A stretch of DNA of 64,000 nucleotides, taken from positions 288,001-352,000 of the forward strand of contig CM000153.2 of NCBI GenBank assembly GCA_000004695.1, in the 5' to 3' direction. Below the pieces are notes generated by a model. It saw only the letters and a program-made list of their open reading frames with translations. It had not been told where the DNA came from and ran no database searches. How positions within the stretch are numbered: position 1 is the first letter of the stretch; each line of letters starts with the position of its first letter. A program made the translations under genes and the position numbers. This DNA is from Dictyostelium discoideum. Lineage: Eukaryota. This document shows, one piece after another, positions 19,998 through 55,210 of this stretch.

Positions 19998-20199
19998 TTA
20001 ATAACCAATATAATTTGATGTTTAAAATTTTTGATCATGAAGTTTGCGAATTTGGATATTATTGTTTTGTTTAAAGATGGATTTTTATTGGATAATTATT
20101 ATTACCACACTTTGAATTTTTTAAAATTAAACACCAATTATAAAAAAAAGAATATTTTATTCTAAAAAAAAAAAAAATATTAAAAAAAAAAAAAAAAAT

Positions 20200-20440
20200 A
20201 TGTTTGGTGTTTTATTTGTTTCTTCAATTAAATCTAGTTCAGGTTTGGTTTACAAAATGATATTAGTGTACAAATTTAAAAGTTAATTTAATTGTTGATA
20301 GTTCTAATAAAAACAATTCATATTCAATTGAATATGTTGTGGATAGTTCATGTACTAATATGATTAATGCAGTAAATTATTTTAATAGTTATTTAGATCA
20401 CCGGAAAAAGCAATTTATAATTGTATTTGGAATATGTTGA
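20200..20440 (+). pseudogene. Truncated, frameshifted 5' fragment paralogous to the secreted glycoprotein gene at 23593
   Basis: MFGVLFVSSIKSSSG...NLIVDSSNKNNSYSIEYVVDSSCTNMINAVNYFNSY parallels MLSRKFNIILLLCVLFVSAIKSSSN...NLIVDSNKTNSYSSECGSSFEDSCNNIVDAVNYFHEY at DNA and protein level. An in-frame stop follows ~15 codons after the ATG, and nothing follows downstream. Confidence 0.5.
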
Positions 20441-21163
20441 TGTTTATGAATATTTATTTCTCCATACACAAAATCCCAAGGAGTAATTATTGATGGATTA
20501 ACCCATATGGAAATTTCTTTGACTATGGTAGTTGTTAAAGGTGTAGACCCACTTCCAACAATAAATACATAATTACAAGTATCAAATATTACTTTTGTAA
20601 ACTTTGTCAGATTATCACTTCTTTTATTATTTGAGAAAAAGGTTAATTATAAGAATTCCTGCGTAATTTTAATTAATTGTAATAAAATCTAAATTCGTCA
20701 TTTATTGAATCAAGAGATGTTCAACTCCTGGATATTTTTTAAAATTTTCTAATAGCACTATCCAAATTTAAAAAATTCGATTCCCTTACAAGAAAATAAA
20801 AAAACCATTTGAGATTTTTCACTTGTTTTTCAAATTTATGGCTTAAATTTTTTATAATTGTTTTTTTTTTTTTTTTCACATTTTAACAAGTGTGTATTAT
20901 TATTAAAAGATTGGAAATCTTGATTTTTACCAATCACTGGTGATGATGCTGCATTAACACTATCAAATCTAATACAATGTTATTGAATTTGATTTTGAAA
21001 AATTTGCTAAAATCTGACCTCTCTACCACCTAAACTATTACTAATATCCACTATTTTCTTATACACAACCAATACTATTTCCATTAACAGAATTTAAACT
21101 TGATAAACTTATTGAATTGGTTGTTGGTGCTACTATTGCTGTTGTTGATGTTGATGTTGGTGG

Positions 21164-21201
<38 letters not shown>

Positions 21202-21437
21202 CTTGTGCTTCTGTTACTATATTCACCTAACTTTGTTAATTCAGTTAATTCATCGCTATCTCCCATTCCAAAATTATCTTTGATTTCTTCAAGTAACTCT
21301 GTTGCAGTTACATTAGTTTCTAACTATATCTGCTTTTGTTAAATTATTACCATGAACTAATAAGAGTAAATGTTTGAATTTACTAAATGATAAACCTTTC
21401 CCATCAGCAGAGAAAATTATATTTTCAATAATAATCC

Positions 21438-21469
<32 letters not shown>

Positions 21470-21984
21470 TATATTTATTTGATTGAATAATACTATTATA
21501 AATTTGATAACTTTATATTTAAAATATTTTATATTTTATAATGAGTTGATAAAATTATTATTATTATTATTTAAATGTGCGTCAACTATAAAGTGTTTTA
21601 ATTCACTTATTTAATATTCACTTATTTGTGACTAACTTCCTTACATTAAAAAATTAAATGGAAAAAAAAAAAAAAAAAAAATATAAAATATAAAAATAAA
21701 ATAGTCTTTTCAATAGTTGTGGGGAATTTTTTTTGAAATTTGAAAGGACTAAATTTTTACTTTTTTTTTTTTTTAGTGAAATTAAATAAAATTCACTGCG
21801 CAGTGGAAAGAAATTTTATTGAAATTTCCCTGCAACAAATTTCCATATAAAATTCAGTGCTGGGAAAAATACTCAGAGTAACGCCAAAGTACTTTTGAAA
21901 TTTTTTAAAAAAAATTGAAAAAAATAAAAAAAGTACTGTAGTACTCTCATACTTTGAAGTACTTTATTACTTTTTCTCAATTTG

Positions 21985-22022
<38 letters not shown>

Positions 22023-22075
22023 ACATATATTTTATACTATTATTTATTTTATTATTATTATTTATTTTATTATTA

Positions 22076-22920
22076 TTATTTTTTTAATTTTTTGTTTTTC
22101 ATTAAAAAAATAAGAATAGATGCGTACTTGTCAGTGGTTGAGCATTTATCTTTAGTTAAAATTCTACCAGCAGATGAAAATAATCTTTCGGATTCTACAG
22201 AGGAAAGAGGTAAAGACAAAAGAATGAATGCTATTCGTGATAAAATCGGATATTTACTATTGATTGTATTATTTGACCACCATTTAAAATTATTTGTAAA
22301 TTGACTAGCCACATGTTCATCGTAAACTTTATATAGTTCTTGAATTTCCTGGTGAGATACCAACCTCATTTATTTGAGAGTTTTCATTATCATTATCATT
22401 ATCTTTACTTGTTATATTATCTACTTTATCTATATTATCTATTTTATCATTATCTATATTATCATAATCTAAATTATCATTATCTAAATTATCATTATCT
22501 AAATTATCATTATCTAAATTATCATTAAATAAATTATCATTATCTAAATTATCATTATCTAAATTATCATTATCTATATTATTATTATCATTATCTATAT
22601 TATCATTATCTAAATTTCCAACTCTATCTACATTACTATGATTAACATCATCATTAAAGAATCTATCCACTTCTCTACTATTATTATAATTTTGTTCATC
22701 TTCATCATCTAACTTTCTTTTTTTTTTTTTTCTTTTTTCAGAAAGTGATTTTATTTGGTCCGTTGTAAATAATTTACTATTAAAATAATATCTTCTCTTA
22801 AAAATTTAATATTTGTAAAAGATGGTAAAGGTAAATTATTTAATTCATATAATTGTTCAATTCTAGCTTTTCCTAATTTTTCAATGCTAAAAATTTGAGG
22901 CCTACTCATTTTATAATAAA
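22076..22920 (-). mobile_element. Remnant of a hAT-superfamily transposase gene (C-terminal dimerisation domain only), with upstream D/N-rich repeat and a short N-terminal ORF
   Basis: ORF 22369..22076 has FTNNFKWWSNNTINSKYPILSRIAFILLSLPLSSVESERLFSSAGRILTKDKCSTTDKYASILIFLMKN, which matches the hAT C-terminal dimerisation signature (WW...YP.L...A...LS.P.SS..SER.FS.AG...T..R..L). No BED finger or RNase-H-like catalytic core lies upstream; there are only (DNxDN)n repeats and a disrupted ORF MSRPQIFSIEKLGKARIEQLYELNNL.... This looks like a decayed or domesticated element. Confidence 0.55.
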
Positions 22921-23080
22921 TTTATATCTGTATATCTTTTTCAGTTAAAAAAAATAAAAAATAAAAAATAAAAAAAATAAAATAATAATTTTTTAAAAAT
23001 TAAAAGAACTGAAAAGAAAACTAAAAAGTAAATTACCGAAAGTACTTTTTAATTTTTGAAAATACTTTTTTTTTTTTTGG

Positions 23081-23500
23081 TGAAAGTCATGATTTCCTTT
23101 GCAAGAAAAAAAAAAAACAAAAAAAAAACAATTTTTTTGATTTTTTTTTTTTTTTTTTTGGTGAAAGTCATGATTTCCTTTGCAAGAAAAAAAAAAAAAA
23201 AAAAAAATATCAAATTTTGAAAAAAAAAAAAAAATTTTAAATTATGGCTTGTTTCGGTATTTCTAAAAATTATTATCTGAAAGTGTGTTTGGATACCATT
23301 TTTTTTTCTTTGTTTTCCAAGATTATAGAAAAAAAAAATAAATTATTTTTTTAAAGACAATAAAATTTTAGAATAATTTGAAACGTGTTCTAAATGTCTG
23401 AAAGTGTGGTTGGTTATCCGATTTTTATTCTTTATTCTCCAAGATTATAGAAAAAAAATAAGAATTCTTTTTTTTTTAAAATCAAGAAAATTTTAATATA
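23081..23500. repeat. Local direct repeats upstream of gene 23593: a 35-bp motif (tttggtgaaagtcatgatttcctttgcaagaaaaaa) x2, then a ~120-bp unit (ctgaaagtgtgNttgg...ccaagattatagaaaaaaaa) x2
   Basis: Copies at 23081-23120 and 23155-23195, and at 23277-23345 and 23397-23460. atcaagaaaattttaNtataaattaaaaaaaa also occurs twice (23481, 23539). Confidence 0.75.
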
Positions 23501-23592: not shown

Positions 23593-25110
23593 ATGTTATC
23601 AAGAAAATTTAATATCATATTATTACTTTGTGTTTTATTTGTTTCTGCTATTAAATCAAGTTCAAATTTAGTTTCTAATCCAAATGCCAACCCTACAATT
23701 TTAAATTTAATTGTTGATTCTAACAAAACCAATTCATATTCAAGTGAATGTGGTAGTTCTTTTGAAGACTCATGTAACAATATTGTGGACGCTGTGAATT
23801 ATTTCCATGAATATAAGAGCAAACCAGAAAACTATAATTCTGCATTGGTTTTGAAATTAGCTGATGGAATATATTCTGGTAAAGTAAATTATATACATAG
23901 TGGATTGGGTTTACATATAACAATTTCAACATACACTTCAAACTCCAATGATGTCATTATTGATGGATCTGATCTCCAAAATGATTTGATTGATTTTGAT
24001 AGTAATTGTTTTAATCCACCTTCTTCAAAAACATATTTAAAAGTATCCAATGTTGCCTTTGTAAACTTTTTCAGCCTTAACTATGACATCTTACATTCAG
24101 ATACATATGGAAAGATGGAAACACAATATATTTTTGATAGATGTAAATTTTTAAATTCTACAAACTTGAGATTCACAGGATATGGGGAATCAAAAGAAGT
24201 AAATTCAATTAGTTTTGAAAAATCAATTTTTGAAAACGTTACTTTCAGAAAATATTCCTTTTTTGCCACAAATTACACAACATCTTTTACATTTACAAAA
24301 TTCAATTCAGTATCCTTTGACGATTCTTTTATTGTTGAAGAGATAGATTCAAAAAAAAAATTAATTGGTTGTTCTTTTAATCAAGTTTCTTTTGGCACTA
24401 AAACCCAAAAGTTATATTTTATCGAGGCAAAGGACCTATCAATTGAATCTTCAACTTTTAATCAAATTATAGGTCCAAAAAGTTCAACTCCTGCTTCTTT
24501 GTTAAAAATTTCAAATAACGTAAATATTACTTTAATTATGTTAAATTCTTTTAATAACTTTGATGGTGTTTTGGCAGAATCAAATAACTCTATGATTTTA
24601 TTCAGTTCAAACACATTTTCAAATAGTAATAGCAAACCAATCATCAAATCATTGAATTCAAATGTAATGTACCATTCCAATACTTTTAAATATTCCAGAA
24701 ATTTAAATGATGATCAATTAATTGATTGCACAGACTCATCAATTTCATTTACATCAAATAATGATGGTAGTGAGATTTTTGAAAAAAATCCACTTTGTAA
24801 AGATTGTTTTATATCTATTGGTTCTAAAACAGTTTGTTCTAAAAAAACAACAACAACATCCTCAACCTCTTCTTCAATTGCAACCACCGGTGAAACCACT
24901 TATACTTCTACCACTGGTGATGATGATGATCATCCAAATGGTTCAGTTGATGGTAAATCTGATTCATATCAATTTTTAGTTATTATTTTAATAATAATTT
25001 CTTATTTTTTTAATTTTACTTTATTTTATTTTATTTTATTTATTTTATTTTATTTTATTTATTTTATTTTAAAATATTATAAAAATGCCAATAATAATAC
25101 TATAGCTTGA
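23593..25110 (+). CDS. Secreted/membrane Ser/Thr- and Asn-rich glycoprotein (505 aa) with signal peptide, many NxS/T sequons, a poly-Thr/Ser stalk and a C-terminal hydrophobic anchor
   Basis: Continuous ORF. N-terminal MLSRKFNIILLLCVLFVSAIKSSS is a signal peptide. Repetitive N..F/S-T segments are followed by CSKKTTTTSSTSSSIATTGETTYTSTTG and a hydrophobic tail. A 5' paralogous fragment lies at 20200. The last ~40 nt overlap the 3' end of the convergent gene 25069-25714. Confidence 0.6.
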   Translation: MLSRKFNIILLLCVLFVSAIKSSSNLVSNPNANPTILNLIVDSNKTNSYSSECGSSFEDSCNNIVDAVNYFHEYKSKPENYNSALVLKLADGIYSGKVNYIHSGLGLHITISTYTSNSNDVIIDGSDLQNDLIDFDSNCFNPPSSKTYLKVSNVAFVNFFSLNYDILHSDTYGKMETQYIFDRCKFLNSTNLRFTGYGESKEVNSISFEKSIFENVTFRKYSFFATNYTTSFTFTKFNSVSFDDSFIVEEIDSKKKLIGCSFNQVSFGTKTQKLYFIEAKDLSIESSTFNQIIGPKSSTPASLLKISNNVNITLIMLNSFNNFDGVLAESNNSMILFSSNTFSNSNSKPIIKSLNSNVMYHSNTFKYSRNLNDDQLIDCTDSSISFTSNNDGSEIFEKNPLCKDCFISIGSKTVCSKKTTTTSSTSSSIATTGETTYTSTTGDDDDHPNGSVDGKSDSYQFLVIILIIISYFFNFTLFYFILFILFYFIYFILKYYKNANNNTIA

Positions 25111-31176: not shown

Positions 31177-31418
31177 AACCAAAAATTTAGCGCCAACTTT
31201 AGCAAAACTCTTTGAAGGTATTTTAGATGGTTGGAAGGTATACGATTGTGGCTTTGTTATTCAAGTCTGTAGTTTAAACAATTTACCAATCAATATGCAT
31301 TCGAAAAAAAAAATATATAAATAAAAGATGCAACAATATAATGTTTTTTAGTGTCTTTGTTTATTTATTGTTTTAATTATTGAAAGTTAATTTGATTATT
31401 TTATTAATTTATTTTTAT

Positions 31419-34400
31419 TTATTGAAACAATATTGATATTATAATAAAAAGAGTTGCAACCAATTTGGAGAAAACCGAATGTAAACTAATATCATTGTTT
31501 AGCATTTCTGGATCAGTATTTGAATTAGAATTAGAATTAGAATTATTAAAAAAAGTTTGGGTATAAACTGTTTCAAATTTGTGCTGTGAGAATTTGGAGC
31601 TTTTAATTTGTATTGTAATTGGAGCATCACGAGAATATACTAAACTTAAGTTTTGATTCAATGTAAATTGGCAAATAATGTTTTGATTTTGTTGAATTAT
31701 TTGAGAATGACATTCGATTGTATCTGAAAAAAGACCAGTTATTATATTTTTAAATGTTGTTTTAAAAGAACCAACAACAGTTATATTAAGGAAACCATCT
31801 CCATTTATTTTAAGATTTCCATCTTTAATTTTTGATATTGAATTAATTATTGGTTTTGTTGGATAATTGAATGGAGTCGAATTTATTATAAACTTTCTAC
31901 CATTTTCTAGAGTAATGAATATACTAAAATTACCAGATCCATATGCAAATGGTATATTTAATTGATATATATAGTTTTGAACTGATTTTGATAAAATTTG
32001 TTTATTTGGTGAATAAATTGTACCATTATCAAATTGAAGTTGGAAATCTGTATAATCATAGCCATTGTATTTATCCAATAAGAAATCAGAACTAACTAAA
32101 ATAGTATTATTACTGAAAGTTGAAAATTGTGCTAAACCTCCATCAATTGTTAAATTTTTAGGTAATGGTGGTTGTATAGCTAATGTTTTTGAATCTTTAG
32201 TAAATGTAAAAATTTTGTATTTATTAAAAATTGTATTTGTATTAAATTGTTTTACAATTGTACCAGTTTGAGAGAATTGAGAATCTTGATTACTTTGTGG
32301 TTCATTTATATTGATATATCCACCTAAACAATTACTACATGTAAACAATAGTTGGTCTTGGTCACTTGTAATTGTGAGATCTGGTACCCTTGTATATGAA
32401 TAATCGTCACTATAAACATATACATATGAGAATTGATTAATAACTAAACTAAGTCTTGAACGATCGAAATAGGTTACTTGGTCACTAGAAACAGCAATTT
32501 TACTATCATCTAAATAAAATTTATAATTTGATAATTTTGATACAAAGAGACCCTCCATTATTATAATACCATTTTCAATTGAATATCTATAAATAATTGG
32601 ACGAACTAAATAATATAAAATGTTTTTTGTTAGTGTTAAATGTTAAATTAAATGTTTTGTATGATTGAAATTATAATTTTTGAATTTTTACAAATACTTA
32701 CAGTTTAATCCATTTGTTAAAGTTTCGATATGATAATCATTATTAAATGAAAGTACATTTGTAGAATATGTATTTAATGTGAATGAAATGATATTTGGTT
32801 CAATTAAAGTATAGTCTAAATCATTTCCATTTTTATCATTATATTTAATACTTGTTATTGGAAATAAAGAAAATGGAAATGAAAGATGTAATTGTACCTT
32901 TTCTTGATTTTGAGTGATTGATGAAATCCACTTTACTGGTGGTTGATAGGTAAATAAATTTGAATGAACCAATTTATCTTTAATATAAATTGAAAAATTA
33001 CCATTACCATAACCACTTGGAATATTGAATTTACCTTGTGTTAATACACTATTATTCAAAGTATTATAATCCAATATACATATTGTACCATTTAAAAATT
33101 CTAATTTTCCTATAATATATGCTTGATTATCGTATATTTTTGGAATAAAATGGCCACTTATTGATACTATTGAATTACCATAAAATCCAAATATTTCATT
33201 GCCACTGATATTAACTTTTTGAAAATTAGTTGGTAACGGTAATGCACCAGATCGTCTATATGGATAAATCGGGGCTTCTAAATAAATTCCACTTAAAATG
33301 ATTCCTTTAGTGTCCAATTGGATTGGATAGTATGAATATTTTGTATAATTATTTGGCAATCCTATTGTTTTTGCACCAATACAATTTGTACAATCGATGA
33401 ACAGTAGATTAAAATCATTATCACACCATGAGTTTAATTTCATTTGCTGTTGTGGTTTTAAAATTGGAAATCTGTCAGATGAATAATCAAAGAGTGAAAT
33501 AAAAAAGTAGTTTTCAACATAATCTGTAGAGTTTACCACCAATGTTGTTGAATTGAATGATATTATATTTGATTGGCTTAATATGTGTTTACTTTCGAAA
33601 TTTAATATATATGCTGATAAAAAAATTTTAAAAAATACACCATTTACTGTAATAATATCACCATTGTTTTCACAACTATTGATTATTGGTTCTATAAAAA
33701 GTTAAAATGAACATATTAGAATTTTATAGTTGAAGATAAAAGTGGTGGTAGTATGAAATATTAATTTTTTTAAAAACATAAATTATACATACTAATTGGT
33801 AAAACTTCAATTGCTTCACCATTATTTATTGAAATTAATTTTGAAGAATTTTCATCTAGTGTAAAACGTAAAATATTTGGTTGAACTAATGAATATTTAA
33901 TTGATGTTCTTTTTGTATTTTTATATGGACATACATATTTTGTTTTAATATAAACATTTACATAACAATCATAAAAATTTACAGATGGTGCAGTAAAGTT
34001 AAATTCTTGATTTTCATCACATTGAAAATAATAATTTCTAGTGGAATATCCGCAAATATTATTATTATTACTGTTATATCTTAATTTCAATGCATAATCG
34101 TCAAAACCAAATTTACCAAATTCAAATTCTTCTGTGTTCAAATTTCCAGTTGTATAAAAACTCCCCCTATATATTAATCCAGATTGACTTCTATAGGAAG
34201 ATAGATTTGAACAAATAGAAAAACGGTGCTCATACTAATTAATTTATAAAAATAAAATTTAATAAAATGTAATGCCCAGTACATTAATAAAGCTTCATTA
34301 TACTTACTTGGCTATAATGATCTGGAAAACTGTGATCAACATTTTTTAATTTTGATAAATTCAAAGAAAAATAATTTGAATTAAAAATACATGAATTTAA

Positions 34401-34601
34401 AACGGATGTACCATTAAAATCATAATTATAATATAAATTATCTAAACTTGTTATATTAAATAAATATAAAGGTTGAGTTAATTCAATTTCAACATTACTT
34501 CGAGTTTGAATAATTGATTTAAAGATTGATTGACAATTTAATGTTGTAATAAAAAATAATAACAAAACATTTATTGATAATATTAAATTTGAATAATTCA
34601 T
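31419..34601 (-). CDS. IPT/TIG-like extracellular glycoprotein with GPI-type C-terminus (Tgr-like family), copy 2; intact, 4 exons, ~970 aa
   Basis: Exons 34601..34308 (signal peptide MNYSNLILSINVLLLFFITTLNC; donor CAA|GTAAGT), 34234..33793 (donor A|GTATGT), 33691..32702 (donor T|GTAAGT) and 32605..31419. Phases 0/1/1 are consistent and total 2913 nt. Exons 3-4 carry IPT/TIG-like blocks (NISGNEIFGF..VSISGHFIP....IIGKLEFLNGTICILDYNT...QGKFNIPSGYGNGNFSIYIKDKLVHSNLFTYQPP; PIINSISKIKDGNLKINGDGFLN...IECHSQ...IICQFT) and dozens of NxS/T sequons. The C-terminus SLHSVFSKLVATLFIIISILFQ-stop is a GPI-anchor-like signal. Confidence 0.7.
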
Positions 34602-35280
34602 TCTTTATTATATAATTTTTATTAATAAAATAAAAATTAAATGATTAGAAAAAAAAAAAAAAAAAAAAAATTGTTTTGAAAGGATTATTGAGAATTATTG
34701 GAAAAAAAAAAAATAATAAAAAATAAAATTAATAAAATTAATAAAAAAATCTTAGTAAACTAAGACTGGGGAAGTAAAAATAAAAAAAATAATTAAAATA
34801 AAAAAAAAAAAAAAACTTTTCGGCAATGAAAAAAAATTTCGCAGTTTCCTAGGATTTCAAAAAAAAAATCTTTTTAATGTTTCGTTTTTATAATCCCAAA
34901 AATAGATTTTTTCTTAAAATTACCAGTGCTGAGAACATATTTTTTTTTTTTTAATAATTAAATAAAATAAAATAAAATAAATTAGAATACTCAGTTTTCT
35001 ATATATTCCAATTTGAAATCAAATCAAATCATATCAAATGAAACCAATTTAAATTAATTTAAATCAAATAAAAATAGTGTCATACGTCAAAAAAATAAAA
35101 AAAAAAAAAAAAAATAAAAAAATAAATGCAAGATATCTTTTTTATTTATTTGTTTTTTTTTTTCATAATTAATTTTTGAAAGTTAAATTTTTAAAAATTG
35201 TTTTTTTTTTTATTTTTTTTTTTTTTATTTTTTTTTTTTTATAATTTTCACTTGGGATTTATATTTTTTTTTTTTATTTT

Positions 35281-36219: not shown

Positions 36220-36811
36220 GTATGAAATGAAAGAGAGAAAAATTCATTCAATGCACCAATTTGTTTAATTAAAAACAAAGATATCTTGGAGCATATTAAA
36301 GATTTCTGTGATATAGTTTCTCCAACTCATATCCTTTCAAATCAACCAACCAAATGTTAAATAAAGCACAAATTAAAGATAGTTGTAAACAAAACACGTG
36401 ATGGCTCAAAAATTGCCTGCTGGTAAAAATTCAATCATTCATATTTTCAAAGCATCTAATGGTTCAGAGTTGTTATAAAATTGGTTTGTCATTCGAATTG
36501 GATCTCTTGTTTCACCTTGGCAAGTCAAGTTGGGATGATACAGTGATAGTTTGGGATTTCATGGTAATACTGTTGTTACCATTGCACATATCAAGTGGGA
36601 TCAGTTCTTGGTGTCGACTACCAAGCGCTTGTCAATATCTCTGTGGTCTTGTTATTCAAGTCTGTAGTTTAAAAAATACATCAATATTAGAAAAATAATA
36701 TAAATAAAGATGAAACAAAATAATGTTTTTTTAGAGTCTTTGTTTATTTATTATTTTATTGTTTCTTTTTTATTGAAAGTAAATTTGATAGTTTTATTAA
36801 TTTATTTTTAT

Positions 36812-39800
36812 TTATTGAAGCAATATTGATATTAGAATAAAAATAGTAGCAACTAGTTTGGAGAAAACTGAATGTAAACTAATATCACTGCTTAACATTT
36901 CATCGTCAGAATAAGTTTGGGTATAAACGGGCTCAAATTGGAAATTTGAATTTTGGTGGCTTCTAAGTTGTATTTCAATTGGATCATTATCAAAATATAT
37001 TTCCAATTTTTCATGTATTGAAAATTGGCAATTAATATTTTGATTTATTATTTCAGGATAACAATCGATTGTTTCCGAAAGGGTACGATTCTCTTTATAT
37101 AAACTATTTGCTTTAAAAGTACCACGTACAATTACATTAAAGAAACCATCCCCATTCATTTTAATATTTCCATCCTTAATTTTTGATATTGAATTAATTA
37201 TTGGTTTTTTTGGATAATAGAATGGGATTGGATTTATTATAAACTTTCTTCTATTTTCAAAAGTAACAAATACACTAAAATTACCAGATCCATATGCAAA
37301 TGGTGCATTTATTTGATATCTATAGTTTTGATCTGATTTTGATAAAAATTGTTTTTTTGCAGAATGAATTGTACCATTATCAAATTGAAATTGGAAATCG
37401 ATATTATCAAAACCATTGTATTTATCCATTAAGAAATCAGCACTTACTAAAATAGTATTATTACTGAAAGTTGAAAATTGGGCCAAACTTCCATCAACTA
37501 TTACATTTGAAGGTAATGGTGGTTGAATAACTATTGTTTTTGAATCTTTTGTAAATGTAAAAATATTGTATTTGTTAAATATTGTTTTTGTATTAAATTG
37601 TTTTACAATTGTACCAATTTGAGAGAATTGAGAATCTTGATCAGTTTGTGGTTCATTTATATTGATAGATCCACCTAAACAATTACTACATGTAAATAAT
37701 AATTGGTCTTGGTTACTAGTAATCGTGAGATCTGGTACCTTAGTAAATGAATAATCATCAATATAAACATATACATGTGAAGCCTTATTCATAATTAAAC
37801 TAAGTCTAGAACTATCGAAATAGGTTATTTGATCGCTGGAAATAGAATTTTTACTATCATCTAGATAAAATTTATAATTTGACAAATTTGACATAAAGAC
37901 ACCCTCCATTGTTATAACATCATTTTGAATTGAATAGTTATAAATAATTGGACGGACTAAATAGTATATATTATGTTTTTTTGTTAGTGTTAATATGTTA
38001 AATGTTTTGTATGGTTCAAAAATAATAATTTTTGAATGTTTACAAATACATACAGTTTAATTCATTTGTTAAAGTTTCGATATGATAATCATTATTAAAT
38101 GAAAGTACATTTGTAGAATTTGCATTTAATGTGAATGAAATAATATTTGGTTCAATTAAAGTATAGTCTAAATCTATTCCATTTTTATTATTATATTTAA
38201 TACTTGTTATTTGAAAGAAATAAACTGGGAATGAAAGATGTAATTGTACCTTTTCTAGATTTTGGGTGACAGATGATATCCACTTTGATGTTGTATAACT
38301 AAATGGATTTAAATGAACCAATTTATCTTTAATATAAATTGAAAAATTACCATTACCATAGCCACTTGGAATACTGAAATTACCTTCTGTAAATACTCTA
38401 TTACTCAAAGTTTTATAATCCAATATACATATTGTACCATTTGAAAATTCTAATTTTCCTATAATATATGCTTGATTATTATACATTTTTGGAATAAAAC
38501 TGCCACTTATTGAAACTGTTGAGATAACATTAAATTCGAATATTTCATTGCCACTGAAACTAACATGATTAAAATCAGTTGGTAACTGTAATGCACTTGA
38601 TCTTTTATATGGATAAATAGGGGCTTCTATATAAATTTCACTATCATCATTCAAAGTGATATAAATATCACTAACTTCAATTGGAGATGAATCTACTACT
38701 GTATAATTATATAACAATCCTTTTGTATTTGCACCAATACAATTTTTACAATAGATGAAAATTGAATTAAAAAAACCAGATTCATGATCATATCTTGAAC
38801 TTAATACCATTTGTTGTTGTGGCTTTAAAATTGGATAGCTTTCAGATTTAATTCCGAAAAGAGAAATAAAAAAGTTATTGTCAACGTAACCTGTTGAGTT
38901 TACTACCAATGTTGTTGAGTTGAATGATGTTATCATCGGTGGTTTTATTTGATAACCACCGTAATAAAATGTATAATTTGATAATACATTTTTAAAAAAT
39001 ATACCTTTTACTGTAATAACATCACCATTATTTTCACAATTATTGATTACTGGCTCTAAAAGAAGTTTTTTAAATTGTACTTATTAGTATTTTATAGGTT
39101 TTTTTGATTATAAAAGTAGTAGTGGTAGGAAATATTAATTTTTTTAAAAACATAAATTATACATACTAATTGATAAATCTATAGTTTTATTACCATTTAC
39201 TGAAATTAAATTTGAAGAATTTTCATCCAATGTGTAACGTAAAATATTTGGTTCAATTAATGAATATTCAATTGGTGTTCTTTTATTATTTTTATATGGA
39301 CATACATATTTTGTTTTAATATAAACATCTACATTACAATCATTAATGGATGCATATTTTGAGGAAGTAAAGTTAAACTCTTGTCTTTCATCACATATAA
39401 AATAATAATCTCTAGACATTAGATCGGTACCACCAAAAATATTTGGACAAGAAATGTGTGGATTGGTATATGTTAATTTTAATTTATAATTATCATTATT
39501 TATACCCAATTTAAAACTTTCTGTATTTAAGTATCCAGTTGGAAATGAAAATTTCCCATATTCTTCAGCACCAGATTGACTGTTTGTAAAAGATAGATTT
39601 GAACAAATTGAAAAAAAGTGTTTATACTAATTGGTTTAAAAAATAAAAGTTAATAAATGTAAAATGTAATATTTTATAAAGTTTCATTTTACTTACATCA
39701 GGGTTATAATAGTCTGGAAAACTATAGTCAATATTTTTAAATTTTGATAAATCAAAAGAATAATAAGTTGAATTAAAAATACATGAGTTTAAAACAGATG

Positions 39801-39990
39801 TACCATTAAAATCATAATTATAATATAAATTATCTAAACTTGTAATATTAAATAATTTTAATGGTTCGGCCAACTGAATTTCAACATTACTTCCAGTTTG
39901 ATTAATTGAAGTATAGATAAACTGACTATTTAATTTTGTAATAAAAATTAAAAAAAAAATAGTTGATAATATAAAATTTGAAAATTTCAT
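36812..39990 (-). CDS. IPT/TIG-like GPI-type glycoprotein, copy 3; intact, 4 exons, ~966 aa
   Basis: Exons 39990..39697 (MKFSNFILSTIFFLIFITKLNS; donor GAT|GTAAGT), 39626..39167 (donor A|GTATGT), 39055..38054 (donor T|GTATGT) and 37956..36812. Phases 0/1/1 total 2901 nt. Collinear with copies 2 and 6 at ~60-75% aa identity. Confidence 0.7.
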
Positions 39991-40056
39991 TTTTTATTAT
40001 GTGCTATTTAATAAAATAAAAATATATTGAAAAAAAAAAAAAAAAAACTATTTATA

Positions 40057-40098
<42 letters not shown>

Positions 40099-43059: not shown

Positions 43060-46000
43060 ATGAATTATTCAAATTTAATAATATCAATAAATTTTTTGTT
43101 ATTATTTTTTATTACAACATTAAATAGTGAATCAATCTTTAAATCAATTTATCAAACTGGAAGTAATTTTGAAATTAAATTGACTCAACCATTATATTTA
43201 TTTAATATTACAAGTTTAGATAATTTATATTATGATTATGATTTTAATGGTACATCAGTTTTAAATTCATGTATTTTTAATTCAAATTATTTTTCTTTGA
43301 ATTTATCAAAATTAAAAAATGTTGATCATAGTTTTCCAGATCGTGACTCTATGACAAATATTGAGCACCTTTTTTCAATTTGTTCCGAACTGTCTTCCTA
43401 TAGCAGTCAATCTGGTTTTATTAAAAGTGAAAGAAAGGAATTTGTTGCAACTGGAGATTTAAATAAAGAAAGTTTTAAATTTGGTAGACTTGGTGTTGAT
43501 AATTATGCATTGAAATTAACATATTCCAGTAATAATTTGTTTTATTGTGAAAGATATGGTGGTACCACTAGAAATTATTATTTTCAATGTGATGAAAATC
43601 AAGAATTTAACTTTACTGCACCATCTGTAAATTTTTATGATTGTAATGTAGATGTTTATATTAAAACAAAATATGTATGTCCATATAAAAATACCAAAAA
43701 AACACCAATTAAATATTCATTAGTTCAACCAAATATTTTACGTTTTACAATGGATGAAAATTCTTCAATTTTAATTTCAGTAAATAATGGTAATGCAATT
43801 GAATCTTTACCACCAATCAGTATGTATAATTTATTTTTTTAAAAAAATTAATATTATTTCCTACCACTACTTTTATCTTAAACTATAAAATTCTAAATGT
43901 TCATTTTAATTTTTTTATAGAGCCAATAATCTATAGTTGTGAAAACAATGGTGGTGATATTATTACAGTAAATGGTTTATTTTTTGAAAATTTTTTATCA
44001 AATTATACATTAAATTTCGAACCGTTTCTGATAGACATATTTGATCCATCAGTAATAATATCATTCAATTCAACAACATTGGTAGTAAACTCTACAGGTT
44101 ATGTTGATAATTACTTAATTATTTCTTTCTTTTATTATCAATCTGAAAGATTTCCAATTTTAAAACCACAACAGCAAATGGAATTAAGTTCATGGTATGA
44201 TGATGATTTTGATATGCTGTACAGAATGTACAAATTGTATTGGTGCAAAAACAATAGGATTGCCATATACTTATACAATACCTTCATACTACCCATTCTC
44301 ATTTTACACTGAAAAAATCATTTTAAGTGGAATTTATTTAGAAGCCCCAATCTATCCATATAAAAGATCAAATGCATTACCGTTACCAACTAATTTTCAA
44401 AAAGTTAATATCAGTGGTAATGAAATATTCGAATTTAATGGTAATTCAATAGTATCAATAAGTGGCCGTTTTATTCCAAAAATATACGATAATCAAGCAT
44501 ATATTATAGGAAAATTAGAATTTTTAAATGGTACAATATGTATATTGGATTATAATACTTTGAATAATAGTGTATTAACACAAGGTAAATTCAATATTCC
44601 AAGTGGTTATGGTAATGGTAATTTTTCAATTTATATTAAAGATAAATTGGTTCATTCAAATGCATTTACTTATCAACCACCATCAAAGTGGATTTCATCA
44701 ATCACTCAAAATCAAGAAAAGGTACAATTACATCTTTCATTTCCATTTTCTTTATTACAAATAACAAGTATTAAATATAATGATAAAAATGGAAAAGATT
44801 TAGACTATACTTTAATTGAACCTAATATCATTTCATTGACATTAAATACATATTCTACAAATGTACTTTCATTTAATAATGATTATCATATCGAAACTTT
44901 AACAAATGGGTTAAACTGTAAGTAAATACTATCATACAAATTATTTAATTTTACATATAACACTAACAAAAAACATTTTATATTATTTAGTTCGTCCAAT
45001 TATTTATAGCTATTTTAGTAATTCAATTGAAAATGGTACGAATATAATAATGGAGGGTCTCTTTGTATCAAAATTGTCAAATTATAAATTTTATTTAGAT
45101 GATAGTAAAATTGCTGTTTCTGGTGACCAAGTAACCTATTAAACAATTCTCATATGTATATGTTTATAGTGACGATTATTCATATACAAGGGTACCAGAT
45201 CTCACAATTACAAGCGAGCAAGACCAACTATTGTTTACATGTAGTAATTGTTTAGGTGGATATATCAATATAAATGAACCAGAAAGTAATCAAGATTCTC
45301 AATTCTCTCAAATTGGTACAATTGTAAAACAATTTAATACAAATACAATTTTAAATAAATACAATGCTTTTACATTTACCAAAGACTCAAAAACAATATT
45401 TATACAACCACCATTACCTTCAAATGTAAAAATTGATGGAGGTTTAGCTCAATTTTCAACTTTCAGTAATAATAATATTTTAGTTAGTGGTGATTTTTTA
45501 TTGGATATATTCAATCGTTTTGATTATACAAATTTCCAACTTCAATTTGATAATGGTACAATTTATTCACCAAATAAACAGATTTTATCAAAATCAGATC
45601 AAAACTATGTTTATCAATTAAATATACCATTTGCATATGGATCTGGTAATTTTAGTGTATTTTCTACTCTAGAAAATGGTAGAAAGTTTATTATAAATTC
45701 AACTCCATTCAATTATCCAAAAACACCAATAATTAATTCAATATCAAAAATTAAAGATGGAAATCTTAAAATAATTGGAGATGGTTTCTTTGATGTAGTT
45801 GTTTTTGGTTCTTTTAAAACAACATTTAAAAATATAACAACTGGTCTTTTTTCAGATACAATCGAATGTCATTCTCAAATAACTCAACATCAAAACATTA
45901 TTTGCCAATTTACAATGAATCAAAACTTTAGTTTAGTATATTCTCAAGATACTCCGATTACAATACAAATTAAAAGCTCCAAATACTCACAGCACCAATT

Positions 46001-46220
46001 TGAACCAGTTTATACCCAAACTTTTTTCAATAATTCAAATCCAAATTCTAATTCAAATTCTAATTCAAATTCAAATTCAAATTCAAATTCAAATTCAAAT
46101 TCAAATTCAAATTCAAATTCAAATTCAATTTTAATTTCAAATTCAAATTCAAATTCAAATTTAGTTTTCTCCAAATTTGTAGCAACTATTTTTATTTTAA
46201 TATCAATATTGTTTCAATAA
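43060..46220 (+). pseudogene. TIG-like glycoprotein family copy 4: full-length but disrupted (frameshift in exon 3, stop/deletion at start of exon 4). Lacks intron 1.
   Basis: ORF 43060..43842 fuses the exon-1 and exon-2 homologues with no intron (..VDHSFPDRDSMTNIEHLFSICSELSS..). The exon-3 homologue switches frame between ORFs 44079..44312 and 44197..44925. The exon-4 homologue begins with a stop (..GDQVTY-stop) and is deleted relative to DQVTYFDSSRLSLIMNQ. The C-terminal (AATTCA)n expansion encodes (NS)n. Confidence 0.7.
46040..46165. repeat. (AATTCA)n hexamer repeat inside the coding C-terminus of TIG copy 4
   Basis: Encodes NSNSNS... immediately before the hydrophobic tail. A shorter version is present in copy 2 (NNSNSNSNSNTDPEM). 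Confidence 0.85.
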
Positions 46221-51091: not shown

Positions 51092-51769
51092 GTTATAAAA
51101 TAAAAGAAAAAAAAAATAAAAGAAAAAAAAAAATAAAAGAAAAAAAAAAATAAAAAAAAATAAAAATTAAATAAAAGAAAAAAAAAAAAATATATTTTCA
51201 AATAAAATCGATTACAAATTCTATTAACCCATCTTTTTTTTTTTCGAAATGAAAAAGATTTTTTTTCTTTAAAATCAAAGAATTATAGCGAATTTTTTTT
51301 TTTCGTATTTTTGCAATGTTAAAAAAAAAAAAAGAAAATGTCAAAAATCAATCACAAATTAATTTTTTTTTAATTATTTTTTTTTTATATGTTAAAAAAT
51401 AAACTGATACCATTTGACACTTTCAAAAGCCAAAAAAACGGAGGATTTTTTACCAAAGATTTTTTTTTTTTTTCCAATTATTATTTTTTTTTTAATTTTC
51501 TTAATTAAAATTTTTAGAAAACTAAGATTTTTTTTGTAAAAAGCCGATTTTTATCCCAAAAAAATTTTAGAAAACAAAGATTTTTTTATTTTTTTTCTAA
51601 TAATATAAACCAGAATAATTCATTTAAAAGTCAGAAAAGAAAAAAAAAGTTATTTAATATATTATTATTTTTTTTTTTTTGTCCATAAATATTTTTTTTT
51701 ATTTTTTTATTTTTTTTTCCTTAACAATTATTTAATTATTTTATAAATAAAAAGATTATTTAATAAAAA

Positions 51770-54700
51770 ATGAATTTTCCAAAATTTATATTATTAAATA
51801 TTTTATTATTAATTTTTGCCTCGACATTAAATAGTCAATCAATCTTTAGTTCAATTAATCAAAATGGAAGTAATGTTGAAATTAAATTAGTTCAACCATT
51901 ATATTTATTTAATATAACAAATTTAGATAATTTATATAATGATTATGATTTAAATGGTACATCTGTTTTAAATTCATGTATTTTTAATACAACATATTTT
52001 TCTTTGGATTTATCAATATTAAAAAATATTGACTATATTTTTAAAGATTCCAATAGCAAAGTAAGTAATTGAAACATAATAAAAATTTTAAACATTACAT
52101 TTTATTAACTTTTATTTTTGAAAACTAAATAGTATCAACACCTTTTTTCAATTTGTTCCCGAACTAAACTATATTCTGCTCAGTCTGTTATGCTTAATGA
52201 AAATGGGCAATCTTTTACAACTGGAAATTTGAATACAGAGAAATTTGAAATCGGTAGGTTCGGTTTAAATAATTATTCATTAAAGTTAACCTATACCAAT
52301 CCTGCATTCTCCTTATGTTCTAATAGTGGTTCAACTAGAAATTATTATTTTCAATGTGATGAAAATCTAGAATTTAACATCACATCCCCAAACTCGAAAA
52401 ATGTAAATTATTATGATTGTAATGTAGATGTTACTATCGCAACAAAATATGTATGTCCATATAAAAATATCAAAAAATCATCAATTAAATATTCATTAAT
52501 TCAACCAAATATTTTACGTTTTACATTGGATGAAAATTCTTCAAATTTAATTTCAATAAATAATGGAAAAGTATATGAAGTTTTACCAATTAGTATGTAT
52601 AATTTATATTTTTTAAAAAAAAAAATTAAAATTTCCTACCACCAATTTTATCTTCCACTACTACTACTAATAATACTACTTTTATCAACAATAAAAAATT
52701 CTAATACACTCATTTCATTAAACTTTTACATTTTATAGAGCCAATAATCCATAGTTGTGAAAATAATGGTGATATTATTACAGTAAATGGTTTATTTTTT
52801 AAAAATATATTATCAAATTATACATTTGGTTTCGATGGTCAATTAACAATGAACCGTTCGAATATAATATCATTCAATTCAACAACATTGGTATTAAACT
52901 CTACAGGTTATGTTGACAATAACTTTTTTATTTCACTCTTTGAAAATAAATCTGATAGCTATCCAATTTTAAAACCACAACAGCAAATGGTATTAAGTTC
53001 ATGGTATGATTATAGTTTTCGTAAGGAACGTCTTAACATTGATTGTACAAATTGCCTTGGTGCAAAAACAATAGGAATACAAAATATCTATACAAAATAT
53101 GCACATTCAATAAAAATACCCCCTGAAGATATCAATTTTAGTGGAATCTATTTAGAAGCCCCTATTTATCCTTTTAAAAGATCAAATTTATTGCCATTAC
53201 CAACTAATATTATAGGAGTTAATGATAATAAAATATTTCAATTTAATGGAATTTCAATAGTTTCAATAGCTGGTTATTTTATTCCAAAAATGTATGATAA
53301 TCAAGCATATATTACAGGAAAATTAGAATTTTCAAATGGTACATTATGTATATTGGATTATTATACTTTGGATAGTAATGTATTAACACAAGGTAAATTC
53401 AATATTCCAAGTGGTTATGGTAATGGTAATTTTTCAATTTATACTAAAGATAAGTTGGTTCATTCAAATTCATTTACTTATCAACCACCATCAAAGTGGA
53501 TATCATCAATCACACAAAATTTAGAAAAGGTACAATTACATCTTTCATTTCCATTTTCTTTTTTTCCAATTACAAGTATTAAATATAATGATAAAAATGG
53601 AAAAGATTTAGACTATACTTTAATTGAACCAAATATCATTTCATTCACATTAAATACATATTCTACAAATGTACTTTCATTTAATGATGATTATCATAAC
53701 GAAACTTTAACAAATGGATTAAACTGTATGTATAGATTAAAAATTATAATTTAAATTTAAAATTTTTAATTTTATAACTCACCAAAAAACATTTTATATT
53801 ATTTAGATCGTCCAATTATTTATAGTTATTCAATTCAAAATGGTATTATAACAATGGAGGGTTTCTTTATATCAAATTTATCAACTTATAAATTTTATCT
53901 TGATAATAGTAAAAATGCTGTTTCCAGCGATCAAATAACCTATTTCGATAGTTCAAGAATCAGTTTAATTATGAATCAGGCTTTATATGTATATGTTTAT
54001 TGTGATGACTATTCGTTTACAATGGTACCAGATCTCACAATTACAAGCCAGCAAGACCAATTATTGTTTACATGTAGTAATTGTTTAGGTGGATCTATCA
54101 ATATAAATGAACCCCAGAGTAATCAAGATTCTCAATTCTCACAAATCGGTACAATTGTAAAACAATTTAATACAAATACAATTGTTAATAAATACAATAT
54201 TTATACATTTACTAAAGATTCAAAAACAATAATTATTCAACCACCTTTACCTACAAATTTAATATTTGGTGCAAGTTTACCTAAATTTTCAACATTCAGT
54301 AATAATACTATAATAATTAGTTCTGATTTCTTATTGGATAAATATAATGGTTTTGATTACACAGATTTCCAACTTCAATTTGATAATGGTACAATATATC
54401 CAGTAAAAAAACAACTTTTATCAAAATCAGCTCAAAACTATAAATATCAAATAAATGCACCATTTGCATTTGGATCTGGTAATTTTTGTACATTTATTAC
54501 TTTTGAAAATAATAGAAAGTTAATAAATTCAATTCCATTCTATTATCCAGCAAGACCAATAATTAATTCAATATCAAAAATTAAGATTGGTGGTTTTAAA
54601 ATAAGTGGTGATGGTTTCTTTAATGTATCTTTAATTGCTTCTTTTAAAAAAAATTTGGTAAATACAACCACTGGTGTTATAAAAAATGTTATCCGATGTG

Positions 54701-54966
54701 ATCCTCAAACAACCCAAAGTCAAAATTTAGATTGTGAATTTATAAATACAATACATACAGATAAATTAAATGAATTTCCAATTACAATACTAATTAAAAG
54801 CCAAAGTAATTCACTGTTCAGATTTGAACCATTTTATATCCAATCTTATTTTTATTATCCAAATTCTTATTCATATTATGAAATGAACAATGATATTAGT
54901 TTACATTCGGTTTTCTCCAAATTAGTTGCAACTATTTTTATTATAATATCAATATTGCTTCAATAA
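51770..54966 (+). CDS. IPT/TIG-like GPI-type glycoprotein, copy 6; intact, 4 exons, 965 aa
   Basis: Exons 51770..52060 (donor AAA|GTAAGT), 52133..52592 (acceptor ..aaatag|TAT; donor A|GTATGT), 52739..53725 (acceptor ..tatag|AG; donor T|GTATGT) and 53807..54966 (acceptor ..atttag|AT). Phases 0/1/1 total 2898 nt. Signal peptide MNFPKFILLNILLLIFASTLNS. C-terminus SLHSVFSKLVATIFIIISILLQ-stop. Confidence 0.72.
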
Positions 54967-55210
54967 ATAAAATAATTTATAGAATTATCAAGTAAACTTT
55001 CAATAAAAATAAAATTAAAAATAAAATAAAAACACTAAACATTTAATATTGTAAACAACCATAGTTTTTAATAAAATAAAAAAAATAATAAAAAATAAAA
55101 TTAGTTGGGTGGTGTGAATATGTTAAGATAATAAATAATAAATTAATATTCCCCCTTACAATTAATTTTTTTTTTTTTTTTAATTATTTTTTACCTATTC
55201 CTTAAACAAT

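Follow-up and report, generated by a model that had tools for sequence, protein, structure and literature searches.

Deleted copies in the maize Ac/Ds transposon system lack internal sequence and keep their terminal and subterminal sequences together with fragments of the transposase ORF. The same appears to hold for the copy described here, which lies in the window, the whole 64-kb stretch of DNA analysed; hATC, the conserved C-terminal oligomerisation region, is common to Ac/Ds and this copy. Ds elements, however, retain both termini and can be mobilised in trans, whereas in the window copy the outer part of one terminus is missing, so that it should be immobile. The Hermes transposase of Musca domestica (PDB 2bw3, 4d1q, 6dww and 8edg) aligns with the window copy over its C-terminal part, including WW...YP..L...A...LS.P.SS..SER.FS, but unlike the window copy it possesses a BED domain, an RNase-H-like core with both aspartates and an insertion domain. 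Domesticated hAT genes such as the ZBED family and DAYSLEEPER resemble the window copy in carrying hAT-derived coding sequence without the ability to transpose. They are intact, are kept at orthologous positions and have lost the transposon ends, whereas the window copy is frame-broken, lineage-specific and still joined to a transposon terminus; the BED finger, kept in most domesticated examples, is absent from it.

The DNA transposons described for D. discoideum are Tdd, DDT and thug, whose transposases are said to be unlike known families (PMC5633606); the preliminary description of this DNA had placed hAT outside the classic Dictyostelium families, and this census agrees with it. In D. purpureum, hAT elements are reported to make up 105 kb of the genome (PMC3188802). 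Our literature search returned no report of hAT in D. discoideum itself, and Holland et al. 2025 (PMC12745789) do not mention hAT. The GCA_0548... accessions met in our searches, and the protein names recorded for D. discoideum, D. cf. discoideum and D. citrinum, appear to fit the strain set of the latter study.

The hATC ORF of the window sits in the remnant of a hAT element, about 21855-23070 on the minus strand and ~1.2 kb long. We consider it likely that 21855-23070 is a defective, non-autonomous and immobile Ds-like remnant present in this lineage only. Its features, given with reference to P0002, a transposase encoded by an intact element at locus L001, and to an AX4-type locus without the element, L002, are the following.

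21847..21854, no strand: presumed surviving TSD copy, ATAAAATT, 8 bp abutting the terminus; L002 reads ..ATAAAAAATT
21855..21883, minus: TIR at the 3' end of the minus-strand element, CAGTGCTGGGAAAAATACTCAGAGTAACG, aligned to the right TIR of L001
21884..22075, minus: 3' subterminal region with AAAGTACTTT-like repeats at 21886, 21930 and 21956 and an A35 run
22369..22076, minus: hATC ORF, 97 aa, identified by its PF05699 match, Hermes alignment and identity to P0002
22340..22341, minus: frameshift 2, one extra A in TCAAGAA; P0002 homology crosses the break
22434-22616, minus: 15-nt tandem repeat (TRF) of 11.8 copies with 87% matches, encoding DNLDN
22805..22329, minus: frame-0 open stretch of 158 codons with a KRKKKKRK basic cluster, an acidic low-complexity part, (DNLDN)n and the linker GISPGNS
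22754..22756, minus: frameshift 1, one A missing from ACCAAATAA; with one A added, the N-terminal ORF runs on into the frame-0 stretch
22909..22751, minus: N-terminal ORF, 52 aa, MSRPQIFSIEKLGKARIEQLYELNN...
22910..23070, minus: 5' subterminal region with AAAGTACTTT at 23039, AAAATACTTT at 23059 and the inner 5' TIR
23071..23122, no strand: expected position of the 5' TIR tip (~20 nt) and of the second TSD copy, where a T run and a duplicated stretch of host DNA are found instead

The 97-aa ORF matched the Pfam profile PF05699 (Dimer_Tnp_hAT) with E=1.9e-15 and 56.9 bits, against a gathering cut-off of 21.4 bits, and spans profile positions 4-80 of 84. Hermes transposase chains in the PDB matched the same ORF at E=6e-9. 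The hATC signature that the preliminary description had read in 22369-22076, and for which it had proposed a PF05699 profile search, is thus confirmed by both comparisons. The glutamate of the SER motif is aligned with Hermes residue E572, the third residue of the DDE triad in the Hermes structure. This glutamate is the only catalytic residue kept in the window copy.

Relatives of the hATC peptide were sought exhaustively with HMMER among 1.84 billion representative proteins; this gave 2173 matches. The best of them was P0002, a protein of 765 aa with 55% identity over 88 residues (E=2.9e-19; aligned region, P0002 residues 674-759). Other high-ranking matches that we inspected were at most 48% identical and of non-dictyostelid composition, and no protein closer than 55% to the peptide was present in a 15-billion-protein collection. 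A word-index search with the hATC peptide returned one distant JGI protein only and missed P0002. In NCBI, P0002 is recorded as 'hypothetical protein ACTFIZ_001307 [Dictyostelium cf. discoideum]'. It matched the Pfam hATC profile at E=6.6e-15, with weak DUF659 and weak zf-BED matches, and its YDGW and VTDNA motifs, read by eye, are presumably those typical of a hAT core. The P0002 gene consists of a single exon and lies in L001 (GCA_054859235.1, JBTAPI010000007.1) within an element of 2712 bp (L001 9841-12552, contig about 2029039-2031750). The termini of this element, CAATGCTGGGTAA[T/A]AGTACTAAAAAGTAT, form TIRs matching at 28/29 positions, and a perfect 8-bp TSD, ATATTTTC, accompanies them; judged from its sequence, the L001 element may still be active.

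The L001 element and the window copy are alike in hATC (55% amino-acid identity; 74% nucleotide identity over 100 nt) and in the type of their terminal sequence, CAATGCTGGG in the former and CAGTGCTGGG in the latter, and they have AAAAGTA/TACTTTT-type subterminal repeats and the inner 5' TIR 16-mer in common. The distances from ATG to tip and from stop to tip are similar, 160 and 254 nt in L001 versus about 181 and 221 nt in the window. The window copy and P0002 also have a common layout, in which an N-terminal region is followed by a basic cluster, a low-complexity stretch and hATC. Unlike the window copy, the L001 element is complete, with both TIRs, a TSD and an uninterrupted 765-aa ORF that includes BED-like and catalytic-core regions, whereas the window copy lacks ~1.5 kb of coding sequence between the low-complexity stretch and hATC, one TIR tip and one TSD copy, and carries two frameshifts. 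No similarity was detected between the N-terminal ORF and the N-terminus of P0002 (first ~50 residues), and the two elements therefore represent different subfamilies. Because its N-terminus is unlike that of P0002 and its hATC is only 55% identical, the direct autonomous parent of the window copy was another element, of a different subfamily.

The remaining coding region is disrupted. The N-terminal ORF, which opens at 22909 with an N-terminus carrying MSRPQIFSIEKL, and the hATC ORF lie in one frame, and the DNLDN repeat is open in another. When both 1-nt breaks were corrected, a single stop-free ORF of 277 codons resulted. In frame 0, NEVGISPGNS pairs with SKIGIEPGSD of P0002 directly upstream of the hATC match, and the frame-corrected alignment with P0002 from NEVGISPGNS through hATC reached 99.8 bits. 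GT..AG introns bridging the frames were found when models were enumerated. Those for the second junction were rejected, since P0002 homology runs across it: the intronless P0002 aligns across 22340-22341, and the break is therefore a frameshift and not an intron. For the first junction, a 65-nt intron model is possible. As both frameshifts sit in A runs, an assembly error is conceivable for either; we infer that both indels are true mutations.

Neither a BED finger nor a catalytic core was found on either strand of the 64-kb window when it was searched by tblastn with a full-length dictyostelid hAT transposase and by tblastx with two dictyostelid hAT elements. Matches were limited to 22085-22348, and neither P0002 residues 150-670 nor the core of a second hAT-like element, at locus L006, matched anywhere in the window. 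The first 100 aa gave no Pfam match at E<=1 and no Cys/His pattern was seen in the translated frames. A SAP-like pattern in the N-terminal ORF was set aside, as it had no Pfam support. The preliminary description had reported an acidic repeat upstream of the domain, a disrupted short ORF and the lack of a BED finger and DDE core. TRF recovered the repeat (period 15, 11.8 copies), the short ORF proved to be 22909..22751, out of frame with the repeat, and the two translated searches of the 64 kb upheld the third observation. The architecture of the copy suggests an internal deletion whose junction probably falls in or beside the (DNLDN)n repeat at 22434-22616. The copy is unable to make transposase.

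The element has one identifiable end. The window terminus begins CAGTGCTGGG... at 21855, 221 nt past the stop codon, and CARTGCTGGG has its single match in the window there; a second intact CARTGCTGGG terminus is absent from the window. Positions 21855-21875 (CAGTGCTGGGAAAAATACTC...) agree with the terminal 21 nt of the L001 element in 17/21 columns, a single gap being needed; over the outermost 10 nt, 9/10 agree. At the tip, window GAGTATTTTT-CCCAGCACTG aligns with L001 TAGTACTTTTACCCAGCATTG, and in gene orientation the 3' flank of the window copy follows that of the L001 element collinearly as far as the tip. At the opposite end, the inner 5' TIR 16-mer AAAAAGTATTTTCAAA lies at 23070..23055 on the minus strand, in the expected place and orientation. 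The window has a single copy of this 16-mer, and the eight fetched loci together have one, in the 5' TIR of L001 (positions 21-36). Paired TIRs and an 8-bp duplication are the diagnostic features of hAT elements, of which the window copy shows one terminus and one TSD copy. As the second TSD copy was not found, an 8-bp duplication at ATAAAATT is presumed. With only one terminus intact, the copy should be immobile also in trans.

Short repeats clustered in subterminal regions serve as transposase binding sites in Ac, hobo and Hermes. In the window, the palindromic AAAGTACTTT has only two perfect matches in 64 kb, at 21886 and 23039, and with at most one mismatch 5/19 of its matches fall within ~200 bp at the two element ends. 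Similar AAAAGTA/TACTTTT repeats occupy the matching 3' subterminal position in the L001 element. Judged from the sequence, the AAAGTACTTT clusters form the pattern expected of putative subterminal transposase-binding repeats. The similar motifs ~1.15 kb apart that had been pointed out earlier are thereby borne out. Two other statements of the preliminary description do not hold: TIRs, said not to be evident, are represented by the terminus at 21855-21875 with its 17/21 agreement with the L001 tip, and the domain called solitary lies inside a remnant with one identifiable end and a precise insertion boundary.

That boundary was seen by comparison with related loci. The insert is absent from all seven related loci fetched from five other Dictyostelium assemblies, and no hATC was found in L002-L005, L007 or L008; the loci without hATC include D. 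discoideum strains and two D. cf. discoideum genomes. L002 aligns with window 20896-21854 and again from 23123 onwards, the 1268 bp between being represented by 21 bp in L002; the L002 segment directly left of the boundary was aligned to window 21777-21854. The alignment ends one base before the terminus, where L002 reads ..ATAAAAAATT and the window ..ATATAAAATT. The protein encoded at L002 is identical to AX4 DDB_G0283103. The 505-aa gene next to the insert (23593-25110) is 84% identical in amino acids to DDB_G0283103 and 87% identical to a wild-strain paralogue, and the window flanks show 79-94% nucleotide identity to related loci. None of the 12 window ORFs and three gene models looked up had an exact counterpart in the protein collection.

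By gene order, the truly syntenic loci are L004, L005, L007 and L008, with PP5, a 654-aa gene, profilin, G-alpha and then, in L008, pyruvate kinase. These four were discarded as empty sites because of the extent of rearrangement immediately upstream of the 505-aa gene. L002, probably a paralogue of the upstream segment and not a strict orthologue, therefore stands as a related insert-free site, not as a proven ancestral allele.

The surroundings of the insert carry further traces of rearrangement. Between the G-alpha block and the hAT relic, window 20150-20625 is a decayed fragment of the 5' part of the 505-aa gene family (70-77% nucleotide identity), which indicates an earlier duplication of the gene now at 23593. 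Window 25900-55100 contains several ~3.3-kb paralogous units (for example 31334-34671, 36741-40081, 43449-46039 and 51694-55037) that are 78-79% identical to the L002 gene 16741-20069 and increase the distance from the 505-aa gene to pyruvate kinase to ~32 kb, versus ~6 kb in L008; the ORFs of this array had no Pfam match. To the left of the insert, ~110 bp of the window (21673-21783) are missing from L002 and contain an inverted pair, agtcttttcaa ... ttgaaaggact. L002 has one ttgaaaagact, on the opposite side of a conserved palindrome, and the difference points to a small local rearrangement. At 21785-21810 the window reads ATAAAATT and then TTCACTGCGCAGTGGAAAG, which contains the perfect 12-nt palindrome CACTGCGCAGTG. 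The sequence ATAAAATTCACTGCGCAGTGGAAAG, which resembles a TSD plus TIR tip, stands 62 bp left of the terminus and is kept in L002, where the element is lacking. To the right, the 29-nt host segment ggtgaaagtcatgatttcctttgcaag at 23079-23107 has an identical copy at 23152-23190; the copies are part of a ~73-bp host tandem duplication adjoining the truncated 5' end, and L002 has a single copy. This duplication may be the scar of the event that took the TIR tip.

From these features we infer the following course, both in the order of its events and in the mechanism of deletion. An autonomous hAT element would have integrated into ATAAAATT, an 8-bp target on the upstream side of the 505-aa gene. 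The parent element would have encoded an N-terminal domain, a basic cluster, a BED finger, an RNase-H-like DDE core and hATC. An internal deletion of ~1.5 kb would then have removed the BED finger and both catalytic aspartates, to leave the N-terminal ~100 codons, the D/N-rich repeat and the last ~105 codons with hATC. Abortive gap repair is the usual mechanism of internal deletion in hAT elements. A flanking rearrangement that included the ~73-bp host tandem duplication would have eliminated ~20 nt from the tip of the 5' TIR together with the second TSD copy, and two 1-nt indels would have broken the remaining frame.

Other explanations were weighed against a defective remnant. The segment could encode an expressed, catalytically dead hATC protein that acts as a dominant-negative partner of active hAT transposases or has been recruited by the host, which we regard as unlikely. 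Its product would have 277 aa if the indels are assembly errors, or 134 aa if 22777..22349 is spliced out, and it would use the oligomerisation interface and the basic, nuclear-localisation-like cluster. The locus is indeed only two 1-nt A-run differences away from an uninterrupted 277-codon ORF in DNA of 77% A+T, a canonical GT..AG phase-0 intron model leads to the open 134-aa product, and hATC is full length relative to the Pfam profile; moreover, truncated Ac transposases that keep the dimerisation region inhibit transposition. Against such a protein, the segment is absent from the seven related loci in five other assemblies, the 15-billion-protein collection holds nothing more than 55% identical to it, the transposon terminus and subterminal repeats are still present, and the 429-nt 'intron' holds sequence homologous to P0002 coding sequence. 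A bolder version, slightly less likely still, takes the indels for assembly errors and the sequence for that of an expressed 277-aa trans-dominant regulator of hAT transposases that would still be active in the D. discoideum complex, and/or sees hAT activity as one of the driving forces behind structural turnover in this fast-evolving array of paralogues. We conclude that the relic is most probably an ordinary transposon remnant and not a domesticated gene. The earlier suggestion of a domesticated hATC gene fragment is at odds with its absence from the seven related loci, its twice-broken frame and its retained transposon end.

It could also be argued that the element is ancient at this locus and that L002 lost it by deletion. 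L002 is not a clean empty site, with its 21 unmatched bp, the flanks show local rearrangements, and ATAAAATTCACTGCGCAGTGGAAAG, 62 bp to the left, is conserved in L002. However, the L002 alignment stops one base before the TIR tip, which insertion predicts and random deletion does not, no trace of hATC exists at the loci of the D. discoideum strains or of the two D. cf. discoideum genomes, and the ORF is little decayed; we judge an ancient insertion about as improbable as the trans-dominant regulator. The relic of an old invasion proposed in the preliminary description stands as a hAT relic, given the terminus and the subterminal repeats, and is without support as to its age. Because only two 1-nt indels occur in 277 codons, in DNA so rich in A+T, the relic is probably fairly young, or else the indels are assembly errors. 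Least probable by far is that a longer host gene, with BED and catalytic exons elsewhere, has the hATC ORF as its last exon. This was the caveat of the earlier reader, who had named missed upstream exons as the finding that would overturn a transposon fragment, and its one further ground is that short introns are usual in Dictyostelium genes. Yet the hAT core is absent from both strands of the 64 kb, and P0002, a relative of full length, has no introns. The neighbouring upstream gene, at 23593, belongs to another family and is transcribed divergently, from the opposite strand; the intervening DNA contains, immediately upstream of the ATG at 22909, 5' subterminal transposon sequence. The remnant of a defective element is thus the reading that we prefer.

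Further transposase genes were met in the related assemblies. A second, more divergent hAT-like transposase is present in a D. discoideum wild strain (L006 4941-6629; GCA_054859355.1, JBTAPG010000003.1), where it has been annotated as two genes, one ZBED1_RNase-like and one with hATC (P0018); when inverted repeats were sought to define the ends of this element, only low-complexity pairs emerged. The contig is rich in DDE_Tnp_4 (Harbinger-type) and reverse-transcriptase genes. Adjoining the syntenic locus of D. cf. discoideum, a 583-aa gene encodes a piggyBac-type DDE_Tnp_1_7 transposase (L007 15475-17898; GCA_054859235.1, JBTAPI010000036.1), another classical superfamily outside the described D. 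discoideum families. For the comparison with L001 we relied on targeted alignments, as A/T-rich matches dominated the output of blastn at low stringency.

The relic itself reveals no new mechanism, and hAT was already known from D. purpureum. Because the window holds a hAT relic, L001 an intact copy and L006 a hAT-like gene, hAT is not confined to that species, and our results indicate recent mobility of classical hAT elements in the D. discoideum species complex. The relic can serve as a presence/absence marker for a gene array of unstable structure, and the sequences described here are of use for the repeat annotation of new wild-isolate assemblies.
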